Notes under the pieces: model-generated
Database searches by the model: none
The model's input: only the letters and a program-made list of their open reading frames with translations
What the model was told of the DNA's origin: nothing
Shown here: positions 704 to 64,000 of the stretch, piece by piece
Layout: every line of letters begins with the position of its first letter
How positions within the stretch are numbered: the stretch's first letter is position 1
Source: Candidatus Omnitrophota bacterium
Lineage (GTDB): Bacteria > Omnitrophota > Gorgyraeia > Gygaellales > Profunditerraquicolaceae
Length of the DNA stretch: 64,000 nt
Direction of reading: 5' to 3'
Assembly (NCBI GenBank): GCA_026387405.1
Contig: JAPLLV010000057.1
Coordinates: 1,503 to 65,502 of the forward strand
Translations under genes and position numbers: made by a program

Positions 704-704
704 T

Positions 705-23660: not shown

Positions 23661-23752
23661 CGTCATTGCGAGCGAAGCGAAGCAATCCCATTTTAGATTG
23701 CCTGCCTGCCGGACAGGCAGGCTTCGGCACTTCGTGCCTCGCAATGACAAGA
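23661..23752. repeat. RPE-like MITE, copy E (contains the ctgcctgccggacaggcagg hairpin module)
   Basis: cgtcattgcgagcgaagcgaagcaatcccattttagattgcctgcctgccggacaggcaggcttcggcacttcgtgcctcgcaatgacaag. Confidence 0.7.
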
Positions 23753-25944: not shown

Positions 25945-25988
25945 TTCCAGACCCGCGGTGGATGCATGCTTCCACCGCGGGTCTGGAA
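25945..25988. repeat. REP-like palindromic hairpin, perfect (ttccagacccgcggtgga / tgcatgc / ttccaccgcgggtctggaa)
   Basis: Lies between the stop of the upstream gene (25936) and the ATG of the giant gene (26003). Confidence 0.8.
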
Positions 25989-26002
25989 AACGGAGGCTTA
26001 AA

Positions 26003-32000: not shown

Positions 32001-35000
32001 CTGGAGGGATCAGATTTCCTGATAATTCCTATCAGACTAGCGCTACAGCAGGAGGGAGCGTTACTAACATAGCCACTACAGCTCCCATCACCGGCGGCAC
32101 TATCACCAACACCGGCACCATCGGCTTAAGTTATGCCAATGGCCTGAAACTCTCAGGTAACGACCTTGTCCCTGACTATGGCTCAAGCGCAAATACCGTT
32201 GCCCAGGGTAATACTGCCGTCAATGTCAATACTACCGGCAACCTCTCAGGTGGAGCTACCGGCACTGCCGGAGGCGGCCTGAATGTTACCTTAAATACGG
32301 TAAACAATCCCACATTCTCTACTTCTGTTACCACACCCATACTCCAGAATGCCTCTAGCGACTTAACCTTACAGACTACTACTTCTGGGAATATACTCTT
32401 ATCCCCTTCAGGTAATATAGGTATAGGAACTACTTTGCCTCAGGCTAAGCTGGAAATCAAAGCCGCAGGCACCTCAACCGGCTTTGCCTTAAAGGTGCAG
32501 GATTCAACCGGAGCCGATAAGCTTGCCTTCCTTGATAACGGTTCTCTTGGTATAGGCACTACCTCACCCGGTTCCTACAAACTCTATGTGGCAGGGGATG
32601 CCTACTTAGGCGGCCTGACTTTATCCAACGGCAGTATTAACTTCGGCAATGACTTAGATATGCAGAACCATCTGCTCCTAAATATCGGCAATGCCGCAAC
32701 AGACTTTACCACCGGCGGCGGCCTGAACTTAGCCGGCAACCTCGCAGTAAATTCCACCAAGCTCTTTGTAGATGCCACTAACGGCAACGTCGGCATCGGA
32801 ACAACCTCACCAACGGCAGCACTTACCTTTCCAGCAGCATCAACAGGAATTGTGCTCCACAATGCGGCAGACCAAACAACAAATACAGAAACAGGATTTG
32901 CGAGGTGGTCAGGCAATAGCTTTCAAATTGGAACAAATAAAACTGGAACGGGGACGGCTCGCAGTTTAGAGTTCTTTACTGGCGGTGTATCACGATTTAC
33001 TCTCACCGGTGCGGGAGATTATTCTCCAACGTCAGATAATACTTTGTTTATGGGGCTATCCAACAAAAGATTTTATACTGCATATTTTTCAAATTCCATA
33101 AATATCGGCACTGGCACCAGCCCGCAAGTATATCTTGCCGCTTCGGGTAATAGTTGGCTAACAGGCGGCAACGTCGGCATCGGGACGACAGGGCCGATAT
33201 ATAAGATAGATATGTTGTTTTCAAATAATCTTGCCGTTGGTGATGGGATTAGAATCGTAAACTCAAACACAGGAAATTTAGCGGCTGCTATGATTAGAGT
33301 GGAAAACAATACTGGTTCTGACGGTAGGCTTTTCAAACTCGGTTCTGGTTATAGTGCGTATAAGACAATCGTGGGAAATGATTTGGGTTTTTACAACTAT
33401 ACTTCTGGCAACATATCTATTTTGAATGATGTCGCCACTGGCAAAATACTTTTTGCCGCAGGTGCGGCTAATACGGCACAAATGTTAATCGATACGAACG
33501 GCAACGTCGGCATCGGCACAACTGCTCCATTAGGCCTGCTGCAGGTAGGTACTTCGCCTAATGCGCCTTTGGTGGTCTTGGCAAGCGGCAACGTCGGCAT
33601 CGGGACTACGAGTCCTGGGGCAAAACTAGATATTGGCACAGGAACAAGTGCCGATATTATATTTGGGGCTAATACGACCTACACTACTTACAACATTATT
33701 TCTACCAACGGAGTTATGACAGATGCAGGCTTTCAAGGTTTTGGCGGAGGCGGAAGTGCAGAATTTTATATGCAAGCTCCAGCTACTGGAGGATTACACT
33801 TTAGAACAAATGGGAATAGTGAAAAAGTAACAATATTAAGCGGCGGCAACGTGGGCATCGGGACGGCGGCACCTTTAGGTCTCCTGCAGGTAGGCACTTC
33901 TCCTAATGCTCCTCTGGTAGTCCTGGCTAACGGTAACGTAGGAGTAGGTACTACTTCTCCTGCTCAAACCTTAGATGTTACCGGCACCGCCCGCATCACC
34001 GGCAATGTCGGTATAGGCACTACAGCCTCTTCCACCTACGGCCTCTATGTGGTGGGCAATGCCTACTTAGGCGGCCTCACCCTTGCCAACGGCGGTATTA
34101 ACTTCGGCAATGACTTAGATATGCAGAACCATATGATCCTGAATATCGGCGATGCCGCAACAGACTTTACCACCGGAGGCGGCCTGAACTTAGTCGGTAA
34201 CCTCGCAGTAAATGCCACTAAGCTCTTTGTAGATGCCACTAACGGCAACGTAGGCATAGGCACTTCCACTCCAGGCACAGCAGCCTTAGCAATAATGAAT
34301 GGCAACGTCGGCATCGGGACGACGAGTCCGGGGAGTATTTTCTATGTTAATGGCTCAAGTGGCGCACCGTCAACCCTTAATTCTTTGATGACTCTAAGGG
34401 ATAATAATACAAATATAGGTTTTCAAATGGGTGCTACAACGGGTTATGGATGGATACGTTCGGCAGATATTTTAAGCACAGCATATAGTGGAATTAAGGT
34501 AGGCAATGGTTATGTTTCCGTAATGGATGGGTCAACGAATGACAAAGTCTATGTAAATACAACAACTGGCAACGTGGGCATCGGCACGACGAACCCGGGG
34601 GCAAAGTTTCAAATTTCTGGAACAGGTGTATATGATGCAAGTGGTGCTGCAAGATTTGATTTGCTCAATACAACTTACGGGACATCTTGGTTTACTCACG
34701 TTGGAGATACTGGAAATTGGCAAGTTGCGAATGGGGCGGCAACAAAATTACGTATATCTCCGACTACGAATGGGAATATGGATTTTTTTAATGGAACGGG
34801 TAATGTCATTGTCAATGGCACAGGCAACGTCGGCATCGGCACGACCAGCCCTGTCTACAAATTAGACGTCAACGGCACCCTTAATGCCACTGCTATAACT
34901 CAAGGGGGGGTTGGGCTTATAGATGGGGCAGGGACAGCAAACTACCTGCCGAAATGGAGTGACAGTAATACCCTGACAGGGACCAGCCTTGTTTATGACA

Positions 35001-38000
35001 ACGGCACCAACGTCGGCATCGGGACGACGAGTCCGGTTCAGGCTTTACAGGTTGCGAATGATTTTGCTATTGATACGGTTAATCATCGCGTGGGTTTGGG
35101 ATTAACTAATCCAGCTTATCAATTTACCATTGGCAGTAACTTGAGTAATGAAGCGACAAGGGGAATTACTGTCTTGCAGGGTTCTGACTCTGCAAGTGCG
35201 GCTAATTTGAATTTCAGAAAATCCAGAGGGACATTTGCTTCTCCAGAGACAGTTTCGAATCATGACTATCTAAACCTTACAACTTTTTATGCTTATACCA
35301 ACCAATGGCAATCGCCAGCCGCCTTTGGTACTTTTGTTGATGGTACAGTAAGCTCGGGAGTGAATCCTGTCAGCATGTTATTTTCGACGGGTTCAGCTAA
35401 TGAAGCATATAATCCTTTTACGAATAATTCAGTAAGAATGTATTTAAAGCCCGATGGCTCTGTTGGTTTGGGTGGTTCAATGGGCACAATGGGAAGTTTT
35501 GCAGGATCAAAAATGGTTATAGATACTGCCGGCAACGTCGGCATCGGCACGACAAACCCAACGAGTCTTTTATATGTAGCAGGCGACGCTAATATCACCG
35601 GCACGTTCAACGCGGGGATATTTTCGCCATTTACGCTCTCGGTTCCAGGGGCAGCGTACCTGGCTTATAGCTCCGGCAACGTCGGCATCGGAACGACGAA
35701 TCCGGGGACGAAACTTACCGTTTCAGGTTCAGGATTTAACGGCGGCTACGGCACATTTATTTCAACCGATAGCGGCAACGGGGTTTTGGTTCAAGGAGTA
35801 GATGGTGCGGGAATAAACGATACTGCGTACTATGCTTTTTCTGACGGTAATTCGGCGCATAACGCTTTCATTGGATTGGTTGGTACGGCTGGTAAAGGAA
35901 GCGGGAATGTTGGTGATTTGCGGTTTGCGGCAGGCAATAATACCGAGAGAATGAGAATATCTACCGGCGGCAACGTCGGCATCGGGACGGTGAGTCCCGC
36001 ATATAGGCTGAATGTTGCAGATGTTGCCGAGAATACATTTGGCCGGGACATCGTCATACGCAACGGCGATGAGACCAATTACTGGCGTTTGAGCCAAGGT
36101 ATCAATACATCAGGATCGGCTTCTGCAGGCGTTCCGAATAGCAGTAGTTACCTGCTGTGGGAGCAGGGGGGTGGTTATGGCCAAAGCGGAGGACTTGCCG
36201 TAGGTACGAACAATGCATATGCCGGACCACTCATGCTTGTTTCGGGCGGGTCTGAAGCGGTAAGAGTATTGAACAACGGCAACGTCGGCATCGGCACGAC
36301 GAGTCCGAACGCGCCACTTTCAATTGTTAATGCCGTTGGAAGAAGATTCATACTAAATGACTCTGCTACCAGTTATGCCATGGGATTAGGGATAAACCTT
36401 GGACAGGCAGCAAATTCTATGGGTGCATTTATAGGATATGGGGATGGTACTGCCGGGTCATCTAATTTTGAGATTGTTTCAGCAGACCAGGCGTGGCCAT
36501 ATACTTCTTACACAACTCGATTTGTCGTTCAGCGCGGCGGAAATGTCGGCATCGGGACTACGGGGCCGGGGGCTAAACTTGAAGTTGCGGGAACCGGCGT
36601 GGGATCTGGCTGGGGGACCAACTTATCTACTGCTCTAGTTGTTGACGGCGGGGGTTTGGGTACTACGGCAGGAAGTTATGTCTATCCTGCCGAAATCCAA
36701 AATACCGCGGGCAACCGGTTGCGGCTCCAATTTGCTCCATACCGCAGAGTAGCAGGCGCGTCTTGGCAAGGTTCTGCATACCGGATGCAATACGCGGTAG
36801 ATAATTCGTTTACTGACGGAGGCAAGGCATACATTGAACTTGGAGGCGACGATTCTACGTCTTCAGGCGGCGGCTTCGTCTCTCTCGGCACCAACGGTAC
36901 GGACCGTTTGTCCATTCTGGACAACGGCGCCGTCGGCATCGGCATAATCACTCCGTATAGTTCACTGCATATTTCGAACACGAACCCGTCAAATGCTATT
37001 TTGACTCTGGGAGGAGGTTTTGCCGGCACGGTTGATACCGGAGGTCAGATAGTATTCAGGACTGATTTCGGCTCAACCGATACTGTCGGCGGAGCCTCGA
37101 TCAGAGGTTTGAACCAATGGGGCGGTGAGAGCAGCGGACAAGCTATGGATCTCGCCTTTTATACGAATCAGAGGACCGGAGCCAACGCATACACAGGATT
37201 AACCGAACGGATGAAGATCACTCAGGCAGGCTACGTCGGCATCGGGACGACCGCACCCCAAGGCAGGTTAGATGTGTCTGGTATTACGGATGCAGGTTCG
37301 GTCTATTTCCGCAGTACGGGGCGGCCTTTCCTGGATATAAAAGGTGGGGCGAACAGCTATAGTACTCTTAGATTCTCTGATGGTTCTGATGGGACATATC
37401 GCTGGGACATAAATGTTAATCCTGGCAATGATGCTCAACCGAATGCCCTTGGCTTTTGGAGTACGACGCTTAGCGCGCCGGCACTCACGATTCTGCAGAG
37501 TGGCTACGTCGGCATCGGGACGACAAGCCCAACGAGCCTTTTAGATGTAGCAGGCAATCTTAACGTCACCGGCACGTTCAGTATGGGGGCATTCTCGCCA
37601 TCTACGCTCTCGGTTCCAGGGGCAGCGTACCTGGCTTATAGTTCCGGCAACGTCGGCATCGGGTTAACAAATCCTGGAGCAAAATTGGATATCCAAACAT
37701 CAGTGTTAACTGCCCCAGTACTTCGAGTTATGAATTATGGTAATACTGGTAATTCTAACTTTACAATGACTATTCACACCGATCAACCCGCTAATGTAGG
37801 AGGTGCCTATCCGCAATATACCGGGGCTGCTTTGAAAGTGACTGCGTTTCCAAACGCTTCCGCAGATAATGCCGGGTATGTTTTGAAGGTTGGGAGTGAT
37901 GATTCTTCGGGTTCTAGTTTTTCTCCGTATTTGGTTGTAAAGGCAGCTAACGGCAACGTCGGCATCGGGACGGCGAGCCCGGATGCAAAATTAACAATCA

Positions 38001-41000
38001 ATTCTAATACGGTCGCTTCTCCAGGTATTTTATCTAGTGGTACCGTTAGCCACATTGTCGGAGCAGACGCCGCAGTTAGTCGGATGCTTATTGATGTGTT
38101 TGCTAATACCGCATCTGTTACATTGCGCAAGGCAGACGGGACTGCCGCTAGCCCAACCGCGTTGGCAGCTAATGACCTCATAGGGCAATTTGCTTTTCAG
38201 GGATATGGCACAACTGCTTATTCTACGGCAGCCAAGGCGGCAATGAACGGCTTTGCATCCGAAAATTGGACTGATACAGCACAAGGAACTTATTTAACAT
38301 TTAATACTACACTAAACGGGGCAGCGGGGGCTTCCGAGAGAGTAAGGATAGATAATGCCGGCAACGTCGGCATCGGGACGACAAGTCCAGGATATCCGCT
38401 TCAAGTCGGTAACTATGCATATTTAACAAACGATGGTACTAACGAGTTTGCTATTTTAGGGGCAAAGACAGCAAGTGGTGGTTTAGAACGATTGTTCTTA
38501 GATGCAAATTGGGTTCGTATCGGGACAAATTATTCAAGCCCCGATATAGAGATAAAATCAGGCTACGTCGGTATCGGGACGACGAGCCCGGGATATCTTC
38601 TTGAACTTTACAATGCAGCTAATCCTATCATAAATCTAAAAACGGCCAATTATAGCACTGGTTTTTCTCAATATGAAGGAAGCTGGTACGGTGTTTCAAA
38701 TCCAACGATCATTCAACCGTTGGCTCCAGCGACCTCGCACGATGTTGTAATCACGGGAGTTCAAAATGGCCCGTTATCAGGGATTGTAATTAAATCGACC
38801 GGCAACGTGGGCATCGGGACGACGAGTCCCCAAACCAGCCTTGAGATTGGCTATAAAACACAACGCTATTTGATGTTCTCCGATTCAAGGCTGGCGCATG
38901 GCGTCACCAATTTCGTTCCGACCAATGTCTTTGGTTCATTTGAGCAGTACACCTCCGACGGCCTCGGCGGGTTCATCTTCCGCGGCGTGACCGGCGACGT
39001 TGACCGAACGGCGCTCTATTTCGTCGGCGTCAGCGGCAACGCGGCTCCCACCAACGCTCCGATTGTCTTCCGCGGGGCAAAAAAGAGCGGGGCCGGATAC
39101 ACCGACATGGCGAACAATGAACCGGTGATCCAGTTCCAGTCCGGTTCCACGCCGTTGAACATTATGACGTTCATGGGGAGCGGCAACGTCGGCATCGGGA
39201 CGACGGGTCCTCTGCAGATGTTACAAGTAGGGCAGTTAAGCGGTTCGGCGGTCAGCGATGGACAGTTAGTATTGGCAAAATCCAACGGCGGTCCTAATCG
39301 CGCTTTCAAGATCGGCCTAGACAGCAATTATGCGCTTTCCATCGGTGATTACGGATACCATGCAGGTATTGCATATACTCCGTATTTGACCATGTCCTAT
39401 GCGACCGGCAACGTCGGCATCGGGACGACGGACCCGCAGTATAAATTAGACGTTAATGGAACCGCCAGAATTAGCGGCGTGACTCTGCTATCAGGCGGTT
39501 TATCAGACCTTTCCACCTTGACTGTGACAGGAAATACGAACCTTGCGACAACTTCCGGCAACGTCGGCATCGGGACGACGGCACCCGGAACAAAACTTCA
39601 GGTATCCGGGGATGGAAATGCTAATACATATAGAGGGGTTATAAGAATAGATGATACGGGTACTTCAAAATGGGGAGGAATCGCATTTCCAGATAGCGTA
39701 GGCGCTGCTGATAGTGCCGCGAATAATTATTATTTTATAGGGCGTGGAGATGCTATAGCTAATAGAACTTTCACTATCCATATACCTACAGCAGCTAATT
39801 ATGGCAGTGGCGGGCAGCCGATTTTTGGAGTCTATTCCACAGGGTCGGACCAATTATTTAGAGTTCAGGCTTCTACGGGCGAAACATATATAAAGGGCAG
39901 CCTTGGCATCGGGACGACGAGCCCCGGCTTTACATTGGATGTCAACGGCACGGTTGCTCGTGTGGGTCCGACTGGCAGCGGAGTTGCCTATACTCAATAT
40001 GGAAATAGTGCGACTGATGCTAATAATTATTTAGTAGGTGACGAAAATGGTGATTTTGAATTCTATCAAGGTAAATATGGAGGAACAGGTAACGATCGTA
40101 TGCGTATCAAAGCTGGCGTCAACGTCGGCATAGGGACTGCGAGCCCAAGTGCTAAATTGCATGTAAAAGGAGATGCATATGTCGGCGTTCCTTATTTAGA
40201 TAGCGATACATCCGATAAGACCTTGACTATCGCGACTATGACTACCGGCAAGCCCTATTTATCATTCCAGCAAGGCGGCAATAGCGGTTCTGAAATTTAC
40301 CACGATAATACGTATTTAAACTTCGGAGAAAATAGCGGAGGTTCCCGTTCTGGTCCTTATATGGTAATTAAAACCGCAGGTGCCGGCCAGGGCAGTGTCG
40401 GCATCGGGACGACGACGCCAGTGGCTCCTCTGCAAGTCGTTGGTCGGGCTACCGCCGATTATCTGGACCAGGGACACAGCGATCTTGGAACGAGCGCTTC
40501 ACAATCGGCGCTTTCAACATGGGTCGCGATGGCAAGCGCGACGGTTTCTTACGGCACGGTGGAGGCGAACACGCGCATATATAAAAATGGCGATCTGGTC
40601 GCGGAAAAAGCAACGGCCGGGGCCGGCACATTCAACGTTGTCGCGGGCGACATCATTACCACCAACAATAAACCGGTGGGTCTTGTAGCAGAAGGCGCGC
40701 AGTACAGTATCGTGCCGCTGACCCTTTCCGGCACGCAGTTCGGTTTCTACAGCAGTCGCGACGACCCGCAGATAGTATACGTGTATGCGCCCTACGGTAC
40801 AGCGTATGTTGAGTTCTATCAGGACGCTTATAAAGGCGGCACACCGGCCGCCACGGCCACTGTGGCGCAAGGCCAGATAGCAACACTGACAGGAACAGCA
40901 ACCGTAGCTGCCCATTACAACCGCGTTTATGCTTCATCGCCTGTTATTATGACCAAAGCAGGCACCGGCGGCGACTACGATATCGTATCGCCGGCAAGCC

Positions 41001-44000
41001 ACGAGTTAATTACAGCCCGAGGTTTTTCGAGCTATAGCGGGATGACGGCGGCTACGACAATGACATTGTCGTCCAGTGGCTTATATCTGCACTCCGACAA
41101 CGGGCTTGTCTTTGGCAATGCTATTGGCGACGGCGCGGGTGGAGATACAGATATGGCATTGCCATGGAAAGCTGCGGGCGATACCTATATTATCCCTCAC
41201 GCGGTGTCCGATTTCGGTCTTATATCCCTTGAACCAACGACTGTGCGCGTGTATTACTTAAGTTCCGGTGTATGGACGCTCTATAACTCATATGACCTTA
41301 CTTCCGCTTCGCGCACTACCCCCGCTTATATCACAGTGGGTACGCAGTCGGGTGCTGACGCATACATCATTGCAAGCGGTCCCGTTCTTGTGGTTGGCGA
41401 CAGGCCGTTTTACATACGCCTTAATGACACTGCTGATGATGAATATGCGGCTTTGGGTTATATGTCAGGTTCTCGCTCTCTATTCGGGGGTGTTGACGAT
41501 TGGAATGCGACAGGCGCCAATATGTATTACAACGGCACAGGCAACGTCGGCATCGGGACGACGAATCCGCAGTATAAATTAGACGTTAATGGAACCGCCA
41601 GAATTAGCGGCGTGACTCTGCTATCAGGCGGTTTATCAGACCTTTCCACCTTGACTGTGACAGGAAATACGTACCTTGCGACAACTTCCGGCAGCGTCGG
41701 CATCGGGACGGCGAGCCCGGGAGGTAAGCTTGAAGTTCAAGGCGGGAGAAGTTTCTTCTCGGCATCTAATGAACAGTATGGGGTAGGTGTGAAATATTCT
41801 TCATCTGGCGGTGCCGTCTACTTCGGCGCTACCAGCAGTTCCGGTACTCCTGACGCTGCAATTTCTAATGCTGGTGGCGGTACACTTATGACTTTACAGA
41901 ATGGCGGCAACGTCGGCATCGGGACGGCGACACCTCTGCAGTCTCTATCTTTGGGTATTTTTGCATCACCGAGCGGTGCTTTATTAGGATATGCCAATTC
42001 CGACCAAGCCGGATTAAGTTATTATTCAGCTCAAAACTTTCCAACTGCTGGACAATATGATCGTGTTCTAGACATCAATGCCGGAGGCGGTAATGCCGGG
42101 AGTCATATCAATTTTTTAACGCAGCCGGTTAATGGTTCTTCGGTCATACGAATGAGTATAGATGACACCGGCAACGTCGGCATCGGGACGACAGCGCCGG
42201 GGGCAAAATTGGATATTGAATCGACTACAGCAGATAATCAGATTTATGTCGGAAGTGTCGCACCGAGCATTAGGCTTTCAAACAATGCGGTATTAGCATC
42301 AAGAACCAATGAAGGCGTCATCGCTCTAACGACGACCGCAAACCAGTATATTCCTGGGAGTGTTGTAGGGGATTTGAATATCTATTCAGCAGCCCCAAAT
42401 TCTGGAACCGTCGGAGGAATTTTATTTGGTACTGGCGCTTCACAAGTGGCACGGATGTATATTAAATCAGACGGCAATGTCGGCATCGGGACAACAGGAC
42501 CAATATTCACACTTCAAACTGCAGGTGCTGCTAATGCGGGCGATGGAACATTTATATTAAATGGGGGGGCACAATCGACAACCTTCTTCGACGCATATGT
42601 CGATGGGACCAGCGCTTATCAGCATACGCCAGGTATGATGGTGCGCAAGGATAGTAGTGGCACGCGCATTGACCAAGCGCCGGCCGCGCTCACGCTATTT
42701 AATAATAACGGTACGAATAATACCTGGGTAAAGTTGGTATTAGCGAACAGGGAAGCTTCAGGGACAGGAAATCCCGTGAGCATTGCAGGCATCGCAGCGC
42801 AAAAGACCTCAGGAGCTGCTGCTGCATGGGCATCGGGTGATCTCGTTCTCTGGGCAAAAAACGTTGGATCGCAGGTTGAAGTTTTGAGGGCAACAAGCGG
42901 CGGCAACGTGGGCATGGGGACGACGGCGCCAGGAGCTAAATTGGAAATAAATCTAGGAGGGATTGATCTCTTGCCGGGCGGGAATCCAGCAACTGCAAAT
43001 ATGGTACGTTTCTTCGGCGGCCAAAGTGGTACGATTTGGGGACAACAATGGGATATGAATATTGCAGGAATAAATGTTAATAATAGTAGATTAACGTTTG
43101 CGGGGGGTAATAATTCAGGTAGTTTGCCACAGGCTAATATTCTAACTCTTGTGAATAATGGCAACGTCGGCATCGGCACCACCGCGCCCAATGACCCTCT
43201 GCATATTTATAAGAGCAGCGGCAATGCATATCTTCGTACTGAAGCAAATAATGGAGCGGGGTCGGTTAGGGCTTATACATTCGGCCCGAATACTACTGAC
43301 TGGAATCTTCACGTCAGGGATGCGACTGGGAATTACGATATCATTACAGCCCTATGGTCAAACGGCAACGTGGGCATCGGGACGACAAACCCGGGAGCAA
43401 AATTGGAGGTCAATGGCACGATCACCGCAACCAGTTTCTCCGGAACCTCATCCAATGTTTCACCATACTATTATGTCACTGCTGGTAATGGATATGGAAT
43501 CGGATATTGGTCTGCTGCTCCATCAACCTATGGGACATTTATGAGTAATTCCGCAACATATCAGTATGGAGATGTAAATGACTACTATATTGCCAATGTG
43601 ATGAGTTCGGGCACAGGCAGGGGTTTTACTTGGTCATATGAGACAACTCCCAGCATGGCGTTAAATGCCAGTAGCGGTAATCTTGCTATTAAAGGCATTT
43701 TTAAAGCTAATGGAACAGGAAATAACTATTTCGCCGGTAACGTCGGCATCGGCACGGCGGCGCCGGGTCAAAAACTCACTATTTATGATACTGCTGTTGC
43801 TGGTGTTGCGCTAAGATTGGGGTATTCGGATACTGCTTATTTCGATTTTGCAAGAAATTATTCTACGGGAACGTTATCAATTCAAGGTAATCAAACTGGT
43901 ACTAACAATATTGTGTTAGCACCAACTAGCGGCAACGTCGGCATGGGGATAGCCGCTCCACTTACGGGAGCAAAGCTTGACGTTAGTAATTTACCCGCGG

Positions 44001-46048
44001 CATGGACGGCGCTGGCCAATACCTATGGCGCGACTGCCTTTACGTACCCCTATAGTTCCGATGAAACGACAGCGGCAGATTACGCCGCATTCTTAGGAAG
44101 GGTTGGTTGGTATGGGGGAGCGAACGGTAATACAAGCGTCTATGCCTTCAAAGCGGATGTTGGCAATGGGTCAGCGTCGTGGGGGCACCCTAAAGCTATG
44201 TATTCATTCTACGGAAAGTTGAATACAAACGTTGTAACCCAGGCATATCAGAAGTACTACGGCCTGTATCTTGATTCTGTGACAAAGGATGCCACTACTT
44301 CTCTTGCAGAGAACTGGGGGATCTATCAGGCTGATACGACTGCCAAGAGCTATTTTGCAGGCAACATTGGCATCGGGACGACTGCGCCGGAGGCAAAATT
44401 AGATATTCATGCCGGAGATTCCGGAGCTGACGTTGAAAATATAAGGTTTAGTCGGGGAGACCCTTGGAGGTATAACTCCATTCACAGTTGCTCTTGGACA
44501 GGAGGGAATGCTTTTATATCATTTTTAGTGCATGACGGAGTTGGAGATACTACTCAGGCAACTGTCATGACATTAAAAGGAAACGGCTACGTCGGCATCG
44601 GGACGACGGGGCCGGGGTATAAACTCGATGTGTACCAGGATTCGGATGTGTGGCATGCAAGTTTCGGTGGAAGCACGGGAAGAGTAAAAATAGGCGGGCA
44701 AACTACAGGAAACCGAGGCGTTATACAGGCGACGACCGACCTATTATTGCAACGAGACGGCGGCAACGTCGGCATCGGCACGGCGAGCCCGACACAGAAG
44801 CTCCAGGTCCATGGCAATGTGTACATTGATACGTACGGCCAAATAAAGATGCTTACTGGTAATGCTTGGGGCAGATTTATCGGTCAGTATGCGCAAACCG
44901 GAGCGAACGACGCGCTCTTTATTTCTGATAACTACGATAGAGTTGCGGGAACGATAGACCACACATCGCTTGGCACCGCGGAAATAGAGTTACGCGGAGC
45001 CAATGCCGGCCCGGGAGCGATCTATCTGCGCAGCGGTGCCGTAAATACCGCTCCGACTGATACGCTCACTGTTACCGGCGGCAACGTCGGCATCGGGACG
45101 GCGGCACCGCGGACATCTTTGGACATTCTGACTTCTGGTACTGCGAATGTAAATGGAGATGTACCTCATGGCCTTGTGCTGCAAGGTCCGTCCTATGGTC
45201 TCGGAACATACACTGGCCAGCTGGTCGTGCAATCCAACGATGCTCAAGCCGCAAATATGGGCGGGTCCATTGCATTGGGCGGCAGGTATGTTGATTCGAA
45301 TTCTACGGGCGCTTATTTTGCAGGCATTCAAGGCGCAAAAGAGAATAGCACTTCCGGAAATCTAGCCGGATATTTGGCGTTCAGAACGCGCACTACCGGT
45401 AATGCAGACACGGAAAAAATGCGAATCGACAGCGCTGGTAATATCGGCATCGGGATGGCGGCGCCCGTTGAGCCCCTTCAGGTACATCTTGCCACCGGTA
45501 AGAATGTGGGTTTTTTCAACAGTACACTTCCTGCAGTCGGGTCATTCAATGATAACTTCAGTAGTTGGGGAGATTTACAAGTTGGTCTCAATCTGTACTC
45601 TATGGCCAGCGGCAACGTCGGAATCGGGACGACGGCGCCCGGGGCAAAACTGGAAATTGTGGGCACGAATTCACTGATCAGCAACAATTCCGGGAATATC
45701 ACAATTACGCCCAATACCAATTTAAAAGTGACAACGCAGTATTATTCCGCGAAATATTCGTGCACCACCACATTGAGTTGGGATAACGGCAACGTGCAGT
45801 ACATCCAGCTTGCCGGCGGGGGCAATACGTTTACTTTTGCCAATCCTCAAGGGGGGGGGCGATATCTCCTTATCTTAAAACAGCCGTCCTCTGGTTCTGC
45901 CGGCACCGTGACCTGGCCTGCGGCGGTTTTGTGGTCGGCCGGAACAGCGCCGACGTTAACAGCGACGAACAGTAAAGTAGACATCATTACTTTTGTTTAT
46001 GACGACACGAACAGTAAGTATTACGGCGGCTCGAGTTTGAATTATTAG
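26003..46048 (+). CDS. giant (6,681 aa) secreted tail-fibre-like repeat protein
   Basis: Single uninterrupted reading frame of 20,046 nt. ATG at 26003 is preceded by GGAGG. N-terminal signal anchor (VMTFCFFIIALLFFW). About 60 copies of GNVGIGTTxPxxKLxV are spaced irregularly, with a unique ~110-aa C-terminus. The minus-strand ORFs inside are mirror readings of the repeat. Confidence 0.85.
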   Translation: MKNIFTKPSGFKSVMTFCFFIIALLFFWDTVFGEMARQISFQARITNKDKTVLSGSLSVTFRLYSAETDGTALWTETQTVTADSSGIISCYLGSVTPFPDSVDFNTTYYISLEVSGDGEMSPRIKVVPTPAALNSRLFDGLLSSQFLQAGVLTVSGYFAQDYTGIDHNAMTISYSPASGSYNAVDISYGSAGGTGVALQVTQNGTGNIMQLNYDGTPRMVVEMNGNVGIGTTSPSQALEVNGTVKATTFLGDGSSLSGLSGVISGLTTGKIPKAASTTSIADSVIYETSSNIGIGTTNPGSKLDVLGTLRLSGSTSGYVGLAPAAAAGAATYTLPSSSANGLLKNTDGALSWDTTNYLTSGTIASGITNYLAKYTGTSAIGASTMIYDDGSNIGIGTTNPLQKLQVGGDINIEGGSGLMINNTAASGQYLRGNGTRFVDASIAAGDLPTAIDAAKIADGSVSNGAFQYLSGVTSAVQTQLDSKAPKAGPIFSGTVTVGSMSSAGFVKNDAAGVLSGGNTLTPGTDFTTANLVNGTGINMGGTLTNRIVGSAGNVTVNVSSGVPTSVTSDTNVTGSIADNALTLGWSGQLPVSRGGTGAYTLTGILKGNGTDAFTAAVSGTDYLTPAGTLTGLVQSIVSGTSYITGGNLGIGTTAPSAKLEIKAAGTGPDGFALRVTDAEGTDKLALLDNGNLGIGTTAPGAALEIGGQIKITGGAPGENKVLISNALGLASWSSAASIIDANSLDYDKFKDAMTLDASTTVSFGNYDYIFDLTGTGNFRAQDNGSDVFTVKNTGNVGIGTTNPISKLAVTGKITVADDANANDSNGKIYIGKDSGGSTEGAPENGSQYIMWNDSFNAGGKTGWMYVSGGLSATSINIRNTNTLVFGDTNDTPQTVSYSPTGGVGGVGAFTFSKEIVTQASSPSYLTFSKANNNTLYSLEFNPDSSPQTLRLVKKVSGGSIIPLFEFDTAGSFGVFDESGNKSTIISQGRQWQQEFNNLIFNGSFESFSGGISEAPTGMGATQYQSSVIDGWFNLGGASISRIYAPSFGYAASGNVKFGYAAVNVSDVSSSAAQAIQQEIQPFALRDILGKQITLSVFARNGNTGSATTTIGFEAQDSAGNSITTNFIGLKNSLSILDSGFTLLSYTVTVPTNTSRLFVRLFGADASNVTNTGVVIYDGVSLVSGSLVSPFRPTPIVDSGTQTQKIYGDMEIDMSGPSGDMANYGVSSGGNLGIQGQLAVGGGIQVFGGSMTLGRGGANSGIWAYPMGNTSGTTAYKYVVTSVNSGTIESMPHQVYLSNGPSALTTSNSINIGWNVDSNASSYKLYGRSPSSLGLIASGLTSTYYNDNGSVSPNTGVQPPTFYQNAWTPPGSLTMEGGLRVGTGGNPSYVGSGSAVSFGNAYIVGNLEVGGTIYGDISGAVAGWNKVGTNVQLKNIGDNVGIGTTDPGAKLEVAGQIKMTGSTPGAGKVLTSDANGLASWQNATGNVASVFGRAGAVTAQANDYTWAQIDKTTSSLADITTRSAGDLSSGNLAIARMPTGGDWGLSSNLSISGGNVGIGTTSPSAKLEIRSDNNGGIGPTLILSNKTGGAFGTLGNAAQINFGLDISEALTEPNAAIQAILEDDSNAASGLRFFTFNGTASGERVRIANSGNVGIGTTAPGSKLHLHATAISGRESLMKATVSDAGTDAFYIGNITSADNWFVPAFAGMVNSTNARQSLTFAGFVTAANDASNTSPVVDFLAARSTSTTDPLNGTLTGIANRDLFAFRTLDGSGNSVYKMVMNSSGNVGIGTTSPAYKLDVNGTLNATNINQGGTGLIDGTGTTNYLPKWSDSNTLTGTSLVYDTGTNVGIGTTSPSANLQVSDGSLVNSALISTDKILLTYQNTAPGLSIISADNTTASNRAVFKGVRSRGTLVSPLAPSTDDDVLSFLGAIYDGTATQATAMVGFKVDGAVSSGVAPQRISFITSETTGAARQERLTIKANGNVGIGTTNPTATLHIATGGIRFPDNSYQTSATAGGSVTNIATTAPITGGTITNTGTIGLSYANGLKLSGNDLVPDYGSSANTVAQGNTAVNVNTTGNLSGGATGTAGGGLNVTLNTVNNPTFSTSVTTPILQNASSDLTLQTTTSGNILLSPSGNIGIGTTLPQAKLEIKAAGTSTGFALKVQDSTGADKLAFLDNGSLGIGTTSPGSYKLYVAGDAYLGGLTLSNGSINFGNDLDMQNHLLLNIGNAATDFTTGGGLNLAGNLAVNSTKLFVDATNGNVGIGTTSPTAALTFPAASTGIVLHNAADQTTNTETGFARWSGNSFQIGTNKTGTGTARSLEFFTGGVSRFTLTGAGDYSPTSDNTLFMGLSNKRFYTAYFSNSINIGTGTSPQVYLAASGNSWLTGGNVGIGTTGPIYKIDMLFSNNLAVGDGIRIVNSNTGNLAAAMIRVENNTGSDGRLFKLGSGYSAYKTIVGNDLGFYNYTSGNISILNDVATGKILFAAGAANTAQMLIDTNGNVGIGTTAPLGLLQVGTSPNAPLVVLASGNVGIGTTSPGAKLDIGTGTSADIIFGANTTYTTYNIISTNGVMTDAGFQGFGGGGSAEFYMQAPATGGLHFRTNGNSEKVTILSGGNVGIGTAAPLGLLQVGTSPNAPLVVLANGNVGVGTTSPAQTLDVTGTARITGNVGIGTTASSTYGLYVVGNAYLGGLTLANGGINFGNDLDMQNHMILNIGDAATDFTTGGGLNLVGNLAVNATKLFVDATNGNVGIGTSTPGTAALAIMNGNVGIGTTSPGSIFYVNGSSGAPSTLNSLMTLRDNNTNIGFQMGATTGYGWIRSADILSTAYSGIKVGNGYVSVMDGSTNDKVYVNTTTGNVGIGTTNPGAKFQISGTGVYDASGAARFDLLNTTYGTSWFTHVGDTGNWQVANGAATKLRISPTTNGNMDFFNGTGNVIVNGTGNVGIGTTSPVYKLDVNGTLNATAITQGGVGLIDGAGTANYLPKWSDSNTLTGTSLVYDNGTNVGIGTTSPVQALQVANDFAIDTVNHRVGLGLTNPAYQFTIGSNLSNEATRGITVLQGSDSASAANLNFRKSRGTFASPETVSNHDYLNLTTFYAYTNQWQSPAAFGTFVDGTVSSGVNPVSMLFSTGSANEAYNPFTNNSVRMYLKPDGSVGLGGSMGTMGSFAGSKMVIDTAGNVGIGTTNPTSLLYVAGDANITGTFNAGIFSPFTLSVPGAAYLAYSSGNVGIGTTNPGTKLTVSGSGFNGGYGTFISTDSGNGVLVQGVDGAGINDTAYYAFSDGNSAHNAFIGLVGTAGKGSGNVGDLRFAAGNNTERMRISTGGNVGIGTVSPAYRLNVADVAENTFGRDIVIRNGDETNYWRLSQGINTSGSASAGVPNSSSYLLWEQGGGYGQSGGLAVGTNNAYAGPLMLVSGGSEAVRVLNNGNVGIGTTSPNAPLSIVNAVGRRFILNDSATSYAMGLGINLGQAANSMGAFIGYGDGTAGSSNFEIVSADQAWPYTSYTTRFVVQRGGNVGIGTTGPGAKLEVAGTGVGSGWGTNLSTALVVDGGGLGTTAGSYVYPAEIQNTAGNRLRLQFAPYRRVAGASWQGSAYRMQYAVDNSFTDGGKAYIELGGDDSTSSGGGFVSLGTNGTDRLSILDNGAVGIGIITPYSSLHISNTNPSNAILTLGGGFAGTVDTGGQIVFRTDFGSTDTVGGASIRGLNQWGGESSGQAMDLAFYTNQRTGANAYTGLTERMKITQAGYVGIGTTAPQGRLDVSGITDAGSVYFRSTGRPFLDIKGGANSYSTLRFSDGSDGTYRWDINVNPGNDAQPNALGFWSTTLSAPALTILQSGYVGIGTTSPTSLLDVAGNLNVTGTFSMGAFSPSTLSVPGAAYLAYSSGNVGIGLTNPGAKLDIQTSVLTAPVLRVMNYGNTGNSNFTMTIHTDQPANVGGAYPQYTGAALKVTAFPNASADNAGYVLKVGSDDSSGSSFSPYLVVKAANGNVGIGTASPDAKLTINSNTVASPGILSSGTVSHIVGADAAVSRMLIDVFANTASVTLRKADGTAASPTALAANDLIGQFAFQGYGTTAYSTAAKAAMNGFASENWTDTAQGTYLTFNTTLNGAAGASERVRIDNAGNVGIGTTSPGYPLQVGNYAYLTNDGTNEFAILGAKTASGGLERLFLDANWVRIGTNYSSPDIEIKSGYVGIGTTSPGYLLELYNAANPIINLKTANYSTGFSQYEGSWYGVSNPTIIQPLAPATSHDVVITGVQNGPLSGIVIKSTGNVGIGTTSPQTSLEIGYKTQRYLMFSDSRLAHGVTNFVPTNVFGSFEQYTSDGLGGFIFRGVTGDVDRTALYFVGVSGNAAPTNAPIVFRGAKKSGAGYTDMANNEPVIQFQSGSTPLNIMTFMGSGNVGIGTTGPLQMLQVGQLSGSAVSDGQLVLAKSNGGPNRAFKIGLDSNYALSIGDYGYHAGIAYTPYLTMSYATGNVGIGTTDPQYKLDVNGTARISGVTLLSGGLSDLSTLTVTGNTNLATTSGNVGIGTTAPGTKLQVSGDGNANTYRGVIRIDDTGTSKWGGIAFPDSVGAADSAANNYYFIGRGDAIANRTFTIHIPTAANYGSGGQPIFGVYSTGSDQLFRVQASTGETYIKGSLGIGTTSPGFTLDVNGTVARVGPTGSGVAYTQYGNSATDANNYLVGDENGDFEFYQGKYGGTGNDRMRIKAGVNVGIGTASPSAKLHVKGDAYVGVPYLDSDTSDKTLTIATMTTGKPYLSFQQGGNSGSEIYHDNTYLNFGENSGGSRSGPYMVIKTAGAGQGSVGIGTTTPVAPLQVVGRATADYLDQGHSDLGTSASQSALSTWVAMASATVSYGTVEANTRIYKNGDLVAEKATAGAGTFNVVAGDIITTNNKPVGLVAEGAQYSIVPLTLSGTQFGFYSSRDDPQIVYVYAPYGTAYVEFYQDAYKGGTPAATATVAQGQIATLTGTATVAAHYNRVYASSPVIMTKAGTGGDYDIVSPASHELITARGFSSYSGMTAATTMTLSSSGLYLHSDNGLVFGNAIGDGAGGDTDMALPWKAAGDTYIIPHAVSDFGLISLEPTTVRVYYLSSGVWTLYNSYDLTSASRTTPAYITVGTQSGADAYIIASGPVLVVGDRPFYIRLNDTADDEYAALGYMSGSRSLFGGVDDWNATGANMYYNGTGNVGIGTTNPQYKLDVNGTARISGVTLLSGGLSDLSTLTVTGNTYLATTSGSVGIGTASPGGKLEVQGGRSFFSASNEQYGVGVKYSSSGGAVYFGATSSSGTPDAAISNAGGGTLMTLQNGGNVGIGTATPLQSLSLGIFASPSGALLGYANSDQAGLSYYSAQNFPTAGQYDRVLDINAGGGNAGSHINFLTQPVNGSSVIRMSIDDTGNVGIGTTAPGAKLDIESTTADNQIYVGSVAPSIRLSNNAVLASRTNEGVIALTTTANQYIPGSVVGDLNIYSAAPNSGTVGGILFGTGASQVARMYIKSDGNVGIGTTGPIFTLQTAGAANAGDGTFILNGGAQSTTFFDAYVDGTSAYQHTPGMMVRKDSSGTRIDQAPAALTLFNNNGTNNTWVKLVLANREASGTGNPVSIAGIAAQKTSGAAAAWASGDLVLWAKNVGSQVEVLRATSGGNVGMGTTAPGAKLEINLGGIDLLPGGNPATANMVRFFGGQSGTIWGQQWDMNIAGINVNNSRLTFAGGNNSGSLPQANILTLVNNGNVGIGTTAPNDPLHIYKSSGNAYLRTEANNGAGSVRAYTFGPNTTDWNLHVRDATGNYDIITALWSNGNVGIGTTNPGAKLEVNGTITATSFSGTSSNVSPYYYVTAGNGYGIGYWSAAPSTYGTFMSNSATYQYGDVNDYYIANVMSSGTGRGFTWSYETTPSMALNASSGNLAIKGIFKANGTGNNYFAGNVGIGTAAPGQKLTIYDTAVAGVALRLGYSDTAYFDFARNYSTGTLSIQGNQTGTNNIVLAPTSGNVGMGIAAPLTGAKLDVSNLPAAWTALANTYGATAFTYPYSSDETTAADYAAFLGRVGWYGGANGNTSVYAFKADVGNGSASWGHPKAMYSFYGKLNTNVVTQAYQKYYGLYLDSVTKDATTSLAENWGIYQADTTAKSYFAGNIGIGTTAPEAKLDIHAGDSGADVENIRFSRGDPWRYNSIHSCSWTGGNAFISFLVHDGVGDTTQATVMTLKGNGYVGIGTTGPGYKLDVYQDSDVWHASFGGSTGRVKIGGQTTGNRGVIQATTDLLLQRDGGNVGIGTASPTQKLQVHGNVYIDTYGQIKMLTGNAWGRFIGQYAQTGANDALFISDNYDRVAGTIDHTSLGTAEIELRGANAGPGAIYLRSGAVNTAPTDTLTVTGGNVGIGTAAPRTSLDILTSGTANVNGDVPHGLVLQGPSYGLGTYTGQLVVQSNDAQAANMGGSIALGGRYVDSNSTGAYFAGIQGAKENSTSGNLAGYLAFRTRTTGNADTEKMRIDSAGNIGIGMAAPVEPLQVHLATGKNVGFFNSTLPAVGSFNDNFSSWGDLQVGLNLYSMASGNVGIGTTAPGAKLEIVGTNSLISNNSGNITITPNTNLKVTTQYYSAKYSCTTTLSWDNGNVQYIQLAGGGNTFTFANPQGGGRYLLILKQPSSGSAGTVTWPAAVLWSAGTAPTLTATNSKVDIITFVYDDTNSKYYGGSSLNY

Positions 46049-52324: not shown

Positions 52325-52430
52325 ACGTCATTGCGAGGGCGCCTTTTGCCCGAAGCAATCCCTCCTGAAAGCGAGATTGCTTCCCGCCACGCTTCGCTCG
52401 CGGCTTCGGCTCTGACCGCTCGCAATGACA
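52325..52430. repeat. RPE-like MITE, copy F
   Basis: acgtcattgcgagggcgcc...gaagcaatccctcctgaaagcgagattgcttc...gctcgcaatgacaac. Confidence 0.7.
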
Positions 52431-56868: not shown

Positions 56869-57978
56869 ATGAAGGTAATAAGGGGAATTTCAAATATCAG
56901 GCGTTTTCCGCTGCCGGTGGTGGCATTAGGCGTATTTGACGGCGTGCACCTGGGGCACAGGAGTATTCTTTCGGCGGCGGTTGAGACTGCCAAAGAAATA
57001 AGAGGGACCAGCGTTGCCGTGACCTTCTGGCCGCACCCGCAAAATAGGAAGAGCCTTTATTCTCTTGAACATCGCCTGCGCATAATCGGCGAATTGGGGC
57101 TTCAGGCGGCGATCGTAATAAAGTTTACCGGGGCGTTCTCGCGCCTTTCGGCAGAGCGTTTTGTCAAAGACATCCTCGTGGATCGCATTTCGGCCCGTTA
57201 TATCTTCATAGGAAAAAATTTCCATTTCGGTAAAGATAGAAAGGGTGATTACCGCCTTTTGCAAAGATCCTCCGCGCGAAATAATTTTAAAGTAAGGGTA
57301 TTTGAGATCATACGGCGTAAAGATATGCCCATAAGCAGCACGTTGTTGCGCGAGCTGATAAGCCGAGGAGAATTATCCCGGGCAAGGCAATTATTGCTGC
57401 GGCCGGTGAGTGTTCTGGGCACAGTGATCAAGGGGGAGTCCAGAGGTTCTTCCCTGGGATTTCCCACGGCCAATATCGACCCACATCATGAGGTGCTTCC
57501 TCCTGACGGGATTTACGCGGTGCGCGTTATCCTGGGAGGGAAAAAGTTTAAAGGCGTTTGTTATATAGGTAAAAAGCCTACTTTTAGAAAGCATCTATCC
57601 AATAATCGTCATTGCGAGGAGGCTGAAGAGATTCCTCGCCTGTCATTGCGAGGCACCGCAGGTGCCGAAGCAATCTCTATAACAGGCTCGGAACAGGCTG
57701 CGCAATCTCAAAAACAGGATTGCTTCGCCCCCTGCCTTGCCGGCAGGCAGGCTTCGGGGCTCGCAATGACGGTTGCCGGGCAGTTTCCGAGGCGCCGAGA
57801 GTCAACAGGCATTGAGGTGCATATCCTGGGTTTTCACAGGAATATTTACGCTAAGACGTTAGAGATACAATTTATAAAAAAAATAAGGGAGGACAGGAAA
57901 TTCAGTTCCGCATTAAAGCTCTCCGGCCAGATAAAAAAAGATATATCCCGCGCAAAAAACATTTTTTCCCACACCTGA
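56869..57978 (+). CDS. ribF: bifunctional riboflavin kinase / FMN adenylyltransferase, carrying an in-frame MITE insertion (~56 codons)
   Basis: N-terminal ...VVALGVFDGVHLGHRSIL... The kinase region ...GVCYIGKKPTF... is separated from ...GIEVHILGFHRNIYAKTLEIQFIKKIREDRKF... by the translated MITE (SNNRHCEEAEEIPRLSLRGTAGAEAISI...GLAMTVAG). Confidence 0.85.
   Translation: MKVIRGISNIRRFPLPVVALGVFDGVHLGHRSILSAAVETAKEIRGTSVAVTFWPHPQNRKSLYSLEHRLRIIGELGLQAAIVIKFTGAFSRLSAERFVKDILVDRISARYIFIGKNFHFGKDRKGDYRLLQRSSARNNFKVRVFEIIRRKDMPISSTLLRELISRGELSRARQLLLRPVSVLGTVIKGESRGSSLGFPTANIDPHHEVLPPDGIYAVRVILGGKKFKGVCYIGKKPTFRKHLSNNRHCEEAEEIPRLSLRGTAGAEAISITGSEQAAQSQKQDCFAPCLAGRQASGLAMTVAGQFPRRRESTGIEVHILGFHRNIYAKTLEIQFIKKIREDRKFSSALKLSGQIKKDISRAKNIFSHT
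57605..57772. repeat. RPE-like MITE, copy G (compound: two left termini), inserted in-frame within ribF
   Basis: tcgtcattgcgaggaggctgaagagattcctcgcctgtcattgcgaggcaccgcaggtgccgaagcaatctc...gattgcttcgccccctgccttgccggcaggcaggcttcggggctcgcaatgacgg. Confidence 0.75.
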
Positions 57979-59533: not shown

Positions 59534-59534
59534 T

Positions 59535-63276: not shown

Positions 63277-63355
63277 TCGTCATTGCGAGGGAGCGAAGCT
63301 ACCGAAGCAATCTCAAAGACGGGATTGCTTCGCCCCTTCGGGGCTCGCAATGACG
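63277..63355. repeat. RPE-like MITE, copy I (murE-murF intergenic)
   Basis: tcgtcattgcgagggagcgaagctaccgaagcaatctcaaagacgggattgcttcgccccttcggggctcgcaatgacg. Confidence 0.75.
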
Positions 63356-63370: not shown

Positions 63371-64000
63371 ATGTTTACCATATCAGAACTATTACAGGCT
63401 ACAAAAGGTAAATTAATCCGCGGGCGCGCCGATATCAGCGTTAGGGGTATCTCTATTGACTCACGCACTATCGAGCCTTCTTATGCCTTTATCGCCATAA
63501 AAGGGGATAATTTCGACGGCCATGATTTTATTGCCCGGGCAATAGCTAAAGGAGCTAAGGCCATAGTCTACCAATCGTCATTGCGAGGGAGATGTTCTCC
63601 TGTCATTGCGAGGAGCGATTTTTGCGACGAAGCAATCTCTAAAAGCGTGATTGCTTCAGCGCCTGCGGCGCTTCGCAATGACGGCGGGGCTCGCAATGAC
63701 AGTAGAAAAGTAGCATTTATTGAAGTCAGGGATACGGTAAAGGCGCTGGGAGATATTGCTAATTTTCACCGTATGCGGTTTGATATTCCGGTGATCGCGG
63801 TTAGCGGTTCTTCGGGCAAGACCACCGCCAAAGAGATGATCGCCCACGTTTTGGCGTTTAAGTTTAAGGTGCTAAAGTCAGAGGGCACAAAAAACAATAA
63901 TATCGGCCTGCCGCTTACCTTACTGCGGCTAACCCCCAAGCATGAGGCGGTAGTCCTAGAGATAGGCACTAACCATTTCGGCGAGGTAAGGAACCTGGTT
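63371..64000 (+). CDS. murF: UDP-N-acetylmuramoyl-tripeptide--D-alanyl-D-alanine ligase, 3'-truncated by window edge, carrying an in-frame MITE insertion (~42 codons)
   Basis: ATG at 63371. Hand translation is open to the window end: MFTISELLQATKGKLIRGRADISVRGISIDSRTIEPSYAFIAIKGDNFDGHDFIARAIAKGAKAIVYQ [SSLRGRCSPVIARSDFCDEAISKSVIASAPAALRNDGGARNDS] RKVAFIEVRDTVKALGDIANFHRMRFDIPVIAVSGSSGKTT... It is not in the ORF track because no stop falls inside the window. Confidence 0.8.
   Translation, partial: MFTISELLQATKGKLIRGRADISVRGISIDSRTIEPSYAFIAIKGDNFDGHDFIARAIAKGAKAIVYQSSLRGRCSPVIARSDFCDEAISKSVIASAPAALRNDGGARNDSRKVAFIEVRDTVKALGDIANFHRMRFDIPVIAVSGSSGKTTAKEMIAHVLAFKFKVLKSEGTKNNNIGLPLTLLRLTPKHEAVVLEIGTNHFGEVRNLV
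63577..63703. repeat. RPE-like MITE, copy J (compound), inserted in-frame within murF
   Basis: tcgtcattgcgagggagatgttctcctgtcattgcgaggagcgatttttgcgacgaagcaatctctaaaagcgtgattgcttcagcgcctgcggcgcttcgcaatgacggcggggctcgcaatgacag. Confidence 0.75.

Follow-up and report, generated by a model that had tools for sequence, protein, structure and literature searches.

An interspersed palindromic repeat inserted in frame in the FlapII loop of an Omnitrophota FAD synthetase (RibF)

How does a gene for a normally essential enzyme come to hold a dispersed DNA repeat in its middle and remain open from one end to the other? The question is raised by ribF, the gene of a bifunctional riboflavin kinase / flavin mononucleotide (FMN) adenylyltransferase, found in a 64-kb stretch of Candidatus Omnitrophota DNA (contig JAPLLV010000057.1, positions 1,503 to 65,502; hereafter the window). 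As a preliminary description of the locus had stated, its 369-codon open reading frame (ORF) runs without a stop through a compound copy of a short palindromic repeat, and the counts of the repeat's terminal 11-mer bear this out. The 120 best homologues of the protein are nearly all 300-310 amino acids long. Pfam recognizes both domains of a type I flavin adenine dinucleotide (FAD) synthetase, the N-terminal FMN adenylyltransferase (FAD_syn, PF06574, residues 17-158, 2.7e-38) and the C-terminal riboflavin kinase (Flavokinase, PF01687, 6.8e-35), the latter in two stretches of which the first spans residues 177-242. The protein is 100% identical to that of a Candidatus Omnitrophica metagenome-assembled genome (MAG) at NCBI, recorded as bifunctional riboflavin kinase/FMN adenylyltransferase; this record is the sole member of its cluster and the sole record of the allele. 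The explanation that we consider very probable overall is an in-frame insertion of the repeat in the FlapII loop of the kinase half, in a RibF that is translated and most likely active.

The repeat belongs to a family that is dense in the window. Its terminal 11-mer, one mismatch being allowed, has 22 matches versus 0.74 expected, a number reached by none of 100 shuffles. About nine elements, approximately one copy per 7 kb, share a common layout: GTCATTGCGAG, a variable hairpin, GAAGCAATC, a loop, GATTGCTTC, a second variable hairpin, and CTCGCAATGAC. In the alignment of the nine copies these four blocks are invariant, while the variable hairpins show compensatory changes: RNAalifold returns a four-way junction in which both sides have changed in 7 of the 26 pairs, the left hairpin holding most of these. 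The predicted folds of individual copies are much more stable than those of shuffled sequence, the copy at 63279-63354 reaching -43.2 kcal/mol (z -7.1). A covariance model (R1) built from the nine window copies finds nine copies in the window and gives the ribF inner copy (57639-57773) 76.7 bits and an E-value of 1.8e-19, a score that is not independent as this copy is among the training sequences; the 11-mer count and the copy alignment are independent. All window copies other than that of ribF lie between genes or at gene starts.

In ribF, the codons for ...GVCYIGKKPTF and those for IEVHILGF... enclose GTCATTGCGAG, at 57608 and 57642, and the complementary CTCGCAATGAC, at 57760. The copy is compound, with an extra left end and hairpin, a full inner copy, and an internal repeated motif (Table 1). 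Compound copies are common in the family, as the copy at 63577-63700 is nested likewise and that at 21795-21896 has a doubled right end. The bases that follow the right end (57771-57792) may be a decayed outer right end. End to end, the element measures 163 bp (57608-57770); the 168 bp given earlier, a multiple of three, depended on the boundaries chosen, whereas its freedom from stops in the frame of the gene stands. Only one of the six frames of the ribF copy is stop-free, and it is the one that ribF reads. The gain in length had been put at ~56 residues and has to be revised upwards: the surplus over orthologues is 61 codons when compared with a class of 14-residue loops (RKHLRINDQKKNIN of orthologue P0119 versus RKHLSNN...RRRESTG in RibF), and 68 when compared with the modal 7-residue class. 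The G+C content of the insert (0.59) is mildly above that of the gene and is not diagnostic. Its RNA is predicted to fold at -86.2 kcal/mol (z -5.65), with no terminator-like site in a search for intrinsic terminators within and after the insert. A protein search with the 58-residue insert peptide returned three candidates sharing words with it, none of them significant.

Comparison with other RibF proteins identifies the segment as foreign to the gene. The gene order DHH phosphoesterase - ribF - mraZ - rsmH is kept in relatives, which makes the ribF locus orthologous there. Among 100 homologues whose flanking motifs could be located automatically, the loop is 7 residues long in 57 proteins, 14 in 16, 18-33 in eight, and 75 in a single one, the RibF of the window. 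Likewise, 43 further metagenome ribF loci have loops of 6-29 residues and zero element motifs. The interpretation as an insertion had been made to depend on orthologues having no native segment of similar length at this position, and it survives: loops range from 6 to 33 residues in ~130 orthologues versus 75 here. One relative, L002, is element-free and 77% identical over the N-terminal two-thirds of the protein; the DNA alignment with it shows the insert as a single block. The same ribF allele was sought in close relatives among metagenome contigs and was not found there.

To note, the loop has also changed by other routes. The 14-residue class resembles a tandem duplication of the 7-residue loop (KSHIAYRISHIAKN, RAQSAKRKAQSAKN and PHQTPNTKHQTPKH; proteins P0010, P0020, P0022, P0030, P0043, P0072 and P0118), from which it appears that the FlapII loop also grew by a 21-bp duplication in other Omnitrophota. 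Loops of 18-33 residues occur at the same site in further Omnitrophota RibF proteins (P0027, P0036, P0088, P0032, P0068, L125-L128 and L157). The loop DNA of P0027 (L124, 4505-4594) is a run of small G+C-rich hairpins (CCCGTCAAAACGGG, GGCGGGATCCCGCC and GCGGGACAATCCCGC), which suggests other palindromic insertions and a FlapII loop that is a recurrent hotspot of insertion or tolerance.

The position of the insert in the enzyme was obtained by aligning RibF and an insert-free orthologue (P0003) with the FAD synthetase of Corynebacterium ammoniagenes (2x0k) using HMMER, which places the host loop at residues 259-266 and E316 on E268. In the Corynebacterium enzyme, segment 259-266 is named L4c-FlapII and, together with L1c-FlapI, L6c, and helix alpha1c, closes the flavin site on ligand binding; E268 is the catalytic base, and residues 259-264 are without electron density in several mutant crystal structures (PMC5428420). 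The insertion therefore falls in the tip of L4c-FlapII and precedes the catalytic E316 by a few residues. This loop, of about 6 residues in the Corynebacterium enzyme and 7 in most Omnitrophota, reaches 75 in the RibF of the window. It is exposed and mobile, which would explain how an insert can be tolerated there.

An AlphaFold2 model of RibF, calculated with a 54-sequence alignment, agrees with this assignment. Its mean pLDDT (predicted local distance difference test) is 79.9 and its pTM (predicted template-modelling score) 0.73, with block means of 73-98 outside the insert, while residues 243-310 have a pLDDT below 50 and no secondary structure, between higher-confidence blocks that hold the strands 225-234 and 314-319. 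Foldseek matches the model to the FAD synthetases 2x0k, 1mrz and 2i1l with target-normalised TM-scores of 0.77-0.87. Structure modelling had been proposed as a check of the insertion, and in the model both modules are preserved and the insert protrudes as a disordered loop; by prediction, the insertion point, an exposed loop, is compatible with the protein fold. The earlier placement in a surface loop is right in that the loop is predicted to be disordered and is mobile and length-variable, but the site is the L4c-FlapII lid beside the catalytic base and not a neutral surface.

The closest relative, L001, whose RibF is 85% identical (dS ~0.3-0.5), provides a view of the history of the site. 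Its ribF has a 29-residue loop at the same place, which carries GCTCGCAATG, the core of the right end of the element, in the same orientation and frame as the window copy (..ELAM.. and ..GLAM.., respectively). In 227.7 kb of other Omnitrophota loci this 10-mer was found only in the L001 loop and in one true element. Two results tell against a remnant in L001: the model R1, run with filters off, has no significant match in its ribF loop, and the generic local alignment of the L001 and window inserts is weak, 70 of 2000 shuffles scoring as high. The case for the remnant accordingly stands on the targeted 10-mer test. Both a single ancestral insertion, decayed in L001 and, in the window lineage, renewed or struck a second time by a nested copy, and two independent hits on the same ribF loop fit these data. 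The inner copy at least would be young, as the ends of the window copy are perfect. The two lineages also differ elsewhere: L001 has a copy (8932-9006) between ftsL and a penicillin-binding-protein gene, whereas R1 found none at 57773-63276 of the window, the corresponding ftsL/penicillin-binding-protein interval (59903-60063) included, and the matching L001 site of a window copy is empty (Table 1). Such differences indicate that the family has been active since the lineages split.

A distant Omnitrophota RibF, P0097 (47% identity), has a 19-residue loop, ...HRLAMR... (L123, 8715-8774), whose DNA, CGCCTTGCAATGCGG, differs from the right-end core by one mismatch and is similar to the L001 segment; the match may be due to chance or be an older remnant.

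A probable course of events can be drawn from these observations. A non-autonomous palindromic repeat of ~75-105 bp, whose single strand would be able to fold into a four-way junction, would have multiplied in this Omnitrophota genome, and one copy, or a copy nested in an older one, would have inserted into the ribF codons for the tip of L4c-FlapII. The inserted DNA, keeping the frame and free of stops, would then give a RibF with ~61 additional residues, among which Ala, Gly, Ser, Gln, Glu and Arg are abundant. With a host loop that is solvent-exposed, mobile and length-variable in the phylum, the most likely outcome is that the added peptide protrudes as a disordered appendage and that the enzyme keeps both of its activities, perhaps with altered kinetics.

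The state of the gene is in keeping with a functional enzyme. RibF retains every one of the 51 residues found invariant in an alignment of 54 orthologues, including G25, H27 and H30 (HxGH-type motif), P199-T200-A201-N202, and E316. The ratio of nonsynonymous to synonymous substitution rates (dN/dS) relative to L001 is 0.145 upstream of the loop (239 codons) and 0.166 downstream of it (55 codons), and relative to L002 it is 0.141 and 0.151, respectively; by this measure, the 55 codons past the insert appear to be under purifying selection.

Several points nevertheless weigh against an active enzyme. Approximately 43% of the frames of the window copies are stop-free (23/54), so about one in seven random insertions (~14%) would preserve the frame and keep the ORF open, and an intact ORF alone is no proof of selection. 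The dN/dS values span the whole divergence from L001, the time before the insertion included. FlapII helps to close the flavin site and adjoins the catalytic base, and an addition of 61 residues to this lid could impair the kinase; in addition, the very stable mRNA of the insert could hinder translation. The contig, which comes from a MAG, is the sole record of an allele seen in no other assembly. Omnitrophota are, moreover, often thought to depend on other cells. Together, these points would suit an insertion that disabled or crippled the kinase half, leaving a recent deleterious allele or an incipient pseudogene whose function is supplied by another gene or by FMN/FAD uptake. We consider this unlikely. 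Every invariant residue is kept, constraint is the same on either side of the insert, the fold is predicted to be intact, and orthologues manage with loops of 6 to 33 residues. Furthermore, the L001 loop is enlarged too and holds a putative end-of-element remnant in frame, which suggests long-term tolerance. An enzyme that tolerates the insert and has kept its function is the likely outcome.

The metagenomic origin of the contig invites another doubt, that the insert or its compound structure is an artefact of assembling a short multi-copy repeat. With about nine copies in 64 kb and a single contig for the RibF protein, the setting is one in which this might happen. However, both junctions join the element to ribF in the right order and frame, and a random mis-join would seldom yield the single stop-free frame. 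At 76-129 bp, the element falls short of the span of typical read pairs, and an assembly path of this kind requires reads across the junctions. The independent assembly of the sister lineage also has extra sequence at the same site. An artefact is thus very unlikely.

What kind of element is this? The preliminary description called it a MITE (miniature inverted-repeat transposable element). Like classical MITEs such as the Correia element, the family has terminal inverted repeats, small size, many copies, no transposase coding, and a presence or absence that differs between close relatives. Among the 86 complete copies obtained from all loci collected, the median length is 86.5 nt and the inverted ends are 11-13 nt. 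The base at -1 is a pyrimidine in 85 of the 86 and that at +1 a purine in 84, so that the palindrome extends outward. No target-site duplication was found in the 86 copies, nor in the comparison of the filled site 52327-52429 with the empty L001 site, a comparison blurred by sequence divergence. Owing to this absence the name MITE is not established for the family in the strict sense, although its inverted ends, small size and many copies suit it. It differs from classical MITEs, too, in having a four-way junction with conserved stems and co-varying hairpins, and no parent insertion sequence sharing its ends was identified. In one Patescibacteria locus (L050), complete copies at 553-656 and 1724-1841 flank a 325-codon ORF whose product has a transposase domain of the Mutator family (PF00872, 1.3e-07); this transposase gene seems to carry its own inverted ends (GGGTAATTAGT / ACTAATCACCC), and its location between two copies may be a coincidence. 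By inspection, the family also appears distinct from REP/BIME sequences mobilised by RAYT, which are imperfect palindromes of 20-40 nt with a GTAG-type head and an associated RAYT gene: both its size (~86 nt) and its head (GTCATTGCGAG) differ.

The family extends far beyond Omnitrophota. The half-pattern GTCATTGCGAG-N5-35-GAAGCAATC has matches at no fewer than 120 genome loci, and the labels among the matches listed comprise Alpha-, Gamma- and Deltaproteobacteria, Chloroflexi, Cyanobacteria, Bacteroidota, Patescibacteria, Zixibacteria, Planctomycetota, Omnitrophota, Helicobacter and Sporomusa. The conserved blocks occur in genomes labelled as at least 10 phyla (L003-L122), and a copy on a Novosphingobium megaplasmid (NZ_CP017076.1, 990139-990222) is 80% identical to the window copy 63276-63357. 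Such conservation of a non-coding repeat across phyla possibly arises from a shared mobilising enzyme, horizontal spread, or structural constraint. We could not find a description of the family in the searchable literature: searches on the DNA ends of the element, on its typical translated peptides, and on Omnitrophica together with MITE gave nothing relevant.

The listed loci were screened for long open frames spanning an element, and two further housekeeping genes emerged. The uvrA gene of L111 (ORF 1758..4397, minus strand) contains a full in-frame element at 2832-2924 (E 3.7e-14), and its product scores 1197.8 with the NCBIfam UvrA model, whose cut-off is 1147. In L087, guaA (ORF 4145..5746, plus strand) contains one at 4463-4546 (E 2.4e-12), with the amidotransferase domain of GuaA split at profile position 109. 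These copies, from two other MAGs, are read in the frame VIA...PRND, while that of ribF is read as HCEE...LAM. Five other candidates were rejected: in L004, L030 and L079 the element is upstream of the likely true start codon, and in L033 and L071 R1 finds no significant copy. The family thus enters genes in frame repeatedly but rarely.

These examples also bear on the possibility that the segment is removed from ribF after transcription or translation, by RNA processing at the hairpin or by an intein-like excision, which would leave a mature enzyme of normal length. The ends of the insert RNA do pair into a long stem that would bring the flanks together (-86.2 kcal/mol). An open frame would, however, not be required for removal, and the in-frame copies of uvrA and guaA are open as well. 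Pfam detects no intein or other extra domain, and Rfam, searched at curated cut-offs over the entire window and at a relaxed threshold in two regions, reports only a tRNA and chance-level matches, its self-splicing intron families yielding none. Removal is therefore scarcely credible, and a RibF that carries the inserted residues is favored.

The closest parallel is found in the Rickettsia palindromic elements (RPEs), as had been proposed from the outset. According to two later summaries (PMC10969869, PMC3184786) of the work of Ogata et al. (2000, 2002), these are interspersed palindromes of ~100-150 bp that reside both between genes and inside conserved housekeeping genes, where they are in frame and stop-free and add a peptide at a position predicted to be compatible with the fold. 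In some families, nearly half of the copies are inside genes (PMC10969869). The ribF insert, an in-frame interspersed palindrome missing from orthologues, is likewise selfish DNA in a coding gene, and here too one family enters several unrelated genes, namely ribF and, in other genomes, uvrA and guaA. The differences are the Omnitrophota host, a distribution over many phyla versus a single genus, and a genic fraction that is low here (one of about nine in the window, that of ribF, and 2/86 in the sample). Different copies of the window family also use different frames, which sets it apart from RPEs. The element resembles RPEs in every behavioral respect tried and is RPE-like by behavior alone; given its host and distribution, membership of an RPE family by sequence is unlikely.

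Open frames fused within genes or at their ends are also described (PMC3184786, PMC5896051, PMC10969869) for ERIC, YPAL, the pneumococcal BOX, Coxiella QMITE1/2 and Anabaena MITEs. Many of these, as they are described there, extend gene ends or are located in hypothetical proteins, whereas the ribF copy is internal, in a well-characterised and normally essential enzyme, and beside a catalytic residue. The phenomenon is therefore a known, RPE-like one, to which ribF adds an example from a new phylum, placed in a normally essential enzyme next to the catalytic base.

Selfish DNA in genes, tied mainly to Rickettsia and a few pathogens, is hereby extended to an uncultivated phylum of free-living or epibiotic organisms. 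The FlapII loop of FAD synthetase appears highly tolerant of insertions, which is of use for protein engineering and for understanding the lid mechanism. Translations of the repeat (SLRG..., HCEE..., ...LAMT and ...ARND) contaminate protein predictions from metagenomes, and a described family model would help annotation. Of greater interest is the family itself: it is distributed over many phyla, has a structured four-way junction, seems to be missing from the literature that could be searched, and now and then resides in frame in a housekeeping gene. A broader proposal, which we put forward tentatively and think somewhat less probable than its opposite, is that this is an undescribed family of many phyla that enters housekeeping enzymes repeatedly, that protein-coding palindromes are pan-bacterial, and that the ribF insert may predate the split from the sister lineage and may influence the FlapII lid and thereby the kinetics or regulation of FMN synthesis. 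If this is true, protein-coding palindromes would be a general source of loop insertions and not a peculiarity of Rickettsia.

Table 1. Features of the ribF gene and copies of the repeat family in the window
Feature	Position	Strand	Basis
ribF, bifunctional riboflavin kinase / FMN adenylyltransferase	56869..57978	+	Uninterrupted 369-codon ORF, no stop
FMN adenylyltransferase module, residues 17-158	56917..57342	+	PF06574; block-mean pLDDT mostly 80-98
Riboflavin-kinase module before the loop, residues 177-239 (PTAN 199-202, KPTF 236-239)	57397..57585	+	PF01687, first stretch; invariant P199 T200 A201 N202
Putative native left half of the FlapII loop, RKHLSNN, residues 240-246	57586..57606	+	Resembles the RKHLRIN... 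loop start of orthologue P0119
Outer (extra) left end: terminal GTCATTGCGAG and one hairpin	57608..57641	+	Arrangement matches the nested copy 63577-63700
Full inner copy: outer stem GTCATTGCGAG/CTCGCAATGAC, central stem GAAGCAATC/GATTGCTTC, two variable hairpins	57642..57770	+	Covariance model; copy alignment; consensus fold
17-nt motif occurring twice, 32 nt apart (57670-57686, 57702-57718; 88% identical), within the inner copy	57670..57718	+	Repeat search
~21 extra bases past the right end, codons for VAGQFPR; absent from closest relative L001	57771..57792	+	DNA alignment with L001 and L002
Native right half of the loop, RRESTG, ~residues 309-314	57793..57810	+	Alignment with Corynebacterium enzyme residues G261-S266 and with the tails of the L001 and L002 loops
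E316 codon, catalytic base of the kinase (E268 in the Corynebacterium enzyme)	57814..57816	+	Invariant column; HMMER alignment to 2x0k and mutants
Riboflavin-kinase module after the loop, residues 315-369	57811..57975	+	Block-mean pLDDT 82-96; dN/dS 0.166 (L001), 0.151 (L002)
Repeat copy, intergenic or at the 5' end of the following gene	16664..16766		11-mer, site reading, R1
Repeat copy, degenerate right end, intergenic	19895..19965		Site reading, R1
Repeat copy, doubled right end, intergenic	21795..21896		11-mer, site reading, R1
Repeat copy, intergenic	23468..23551		Site reading, R1
Repeat copy upstream of a pilin-like gene	23662..23748		Site reading, R1
Repeat copy, intergenic; matching L001 site empty	52327..52429		Site reading, R1, L001 comparison
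Repeat copy, intergenic, 76 nt, clean four-way junction	63279..63354		Site reading, fold, R1
Nested (compound) copy, architecture as in the ribF copy	63577..63700		Site reading, R1

Some minor observations concern the window copies listed in Table 1. A one-mismatch match, GTCATTGCGGG at 51711 inside ligA, was judged to be a chance occurrence in native BRCT-domain sequence. The right end CTCGCAATGAC contains an ATG that is in frame with the downstream gene at two sites, 16762-16764 and 52425-52427. The first would begin a signal-peptide-like N-terminus (MTIPIIFSLLLGHSAA...), while the second lies five codons upstream of a start conserved in L001. The ATG of the repeat may thus now and then supply or displace a start codon, and it leads ORF callers astray. 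The copies cluster at 16.6-23.7 kb and 52-63.7 kb of the window, and none is inside its very long ORFs, 25958..46048 (plus strand, 6696 codons) and 663..7436 (plus strand, 2257 codons).

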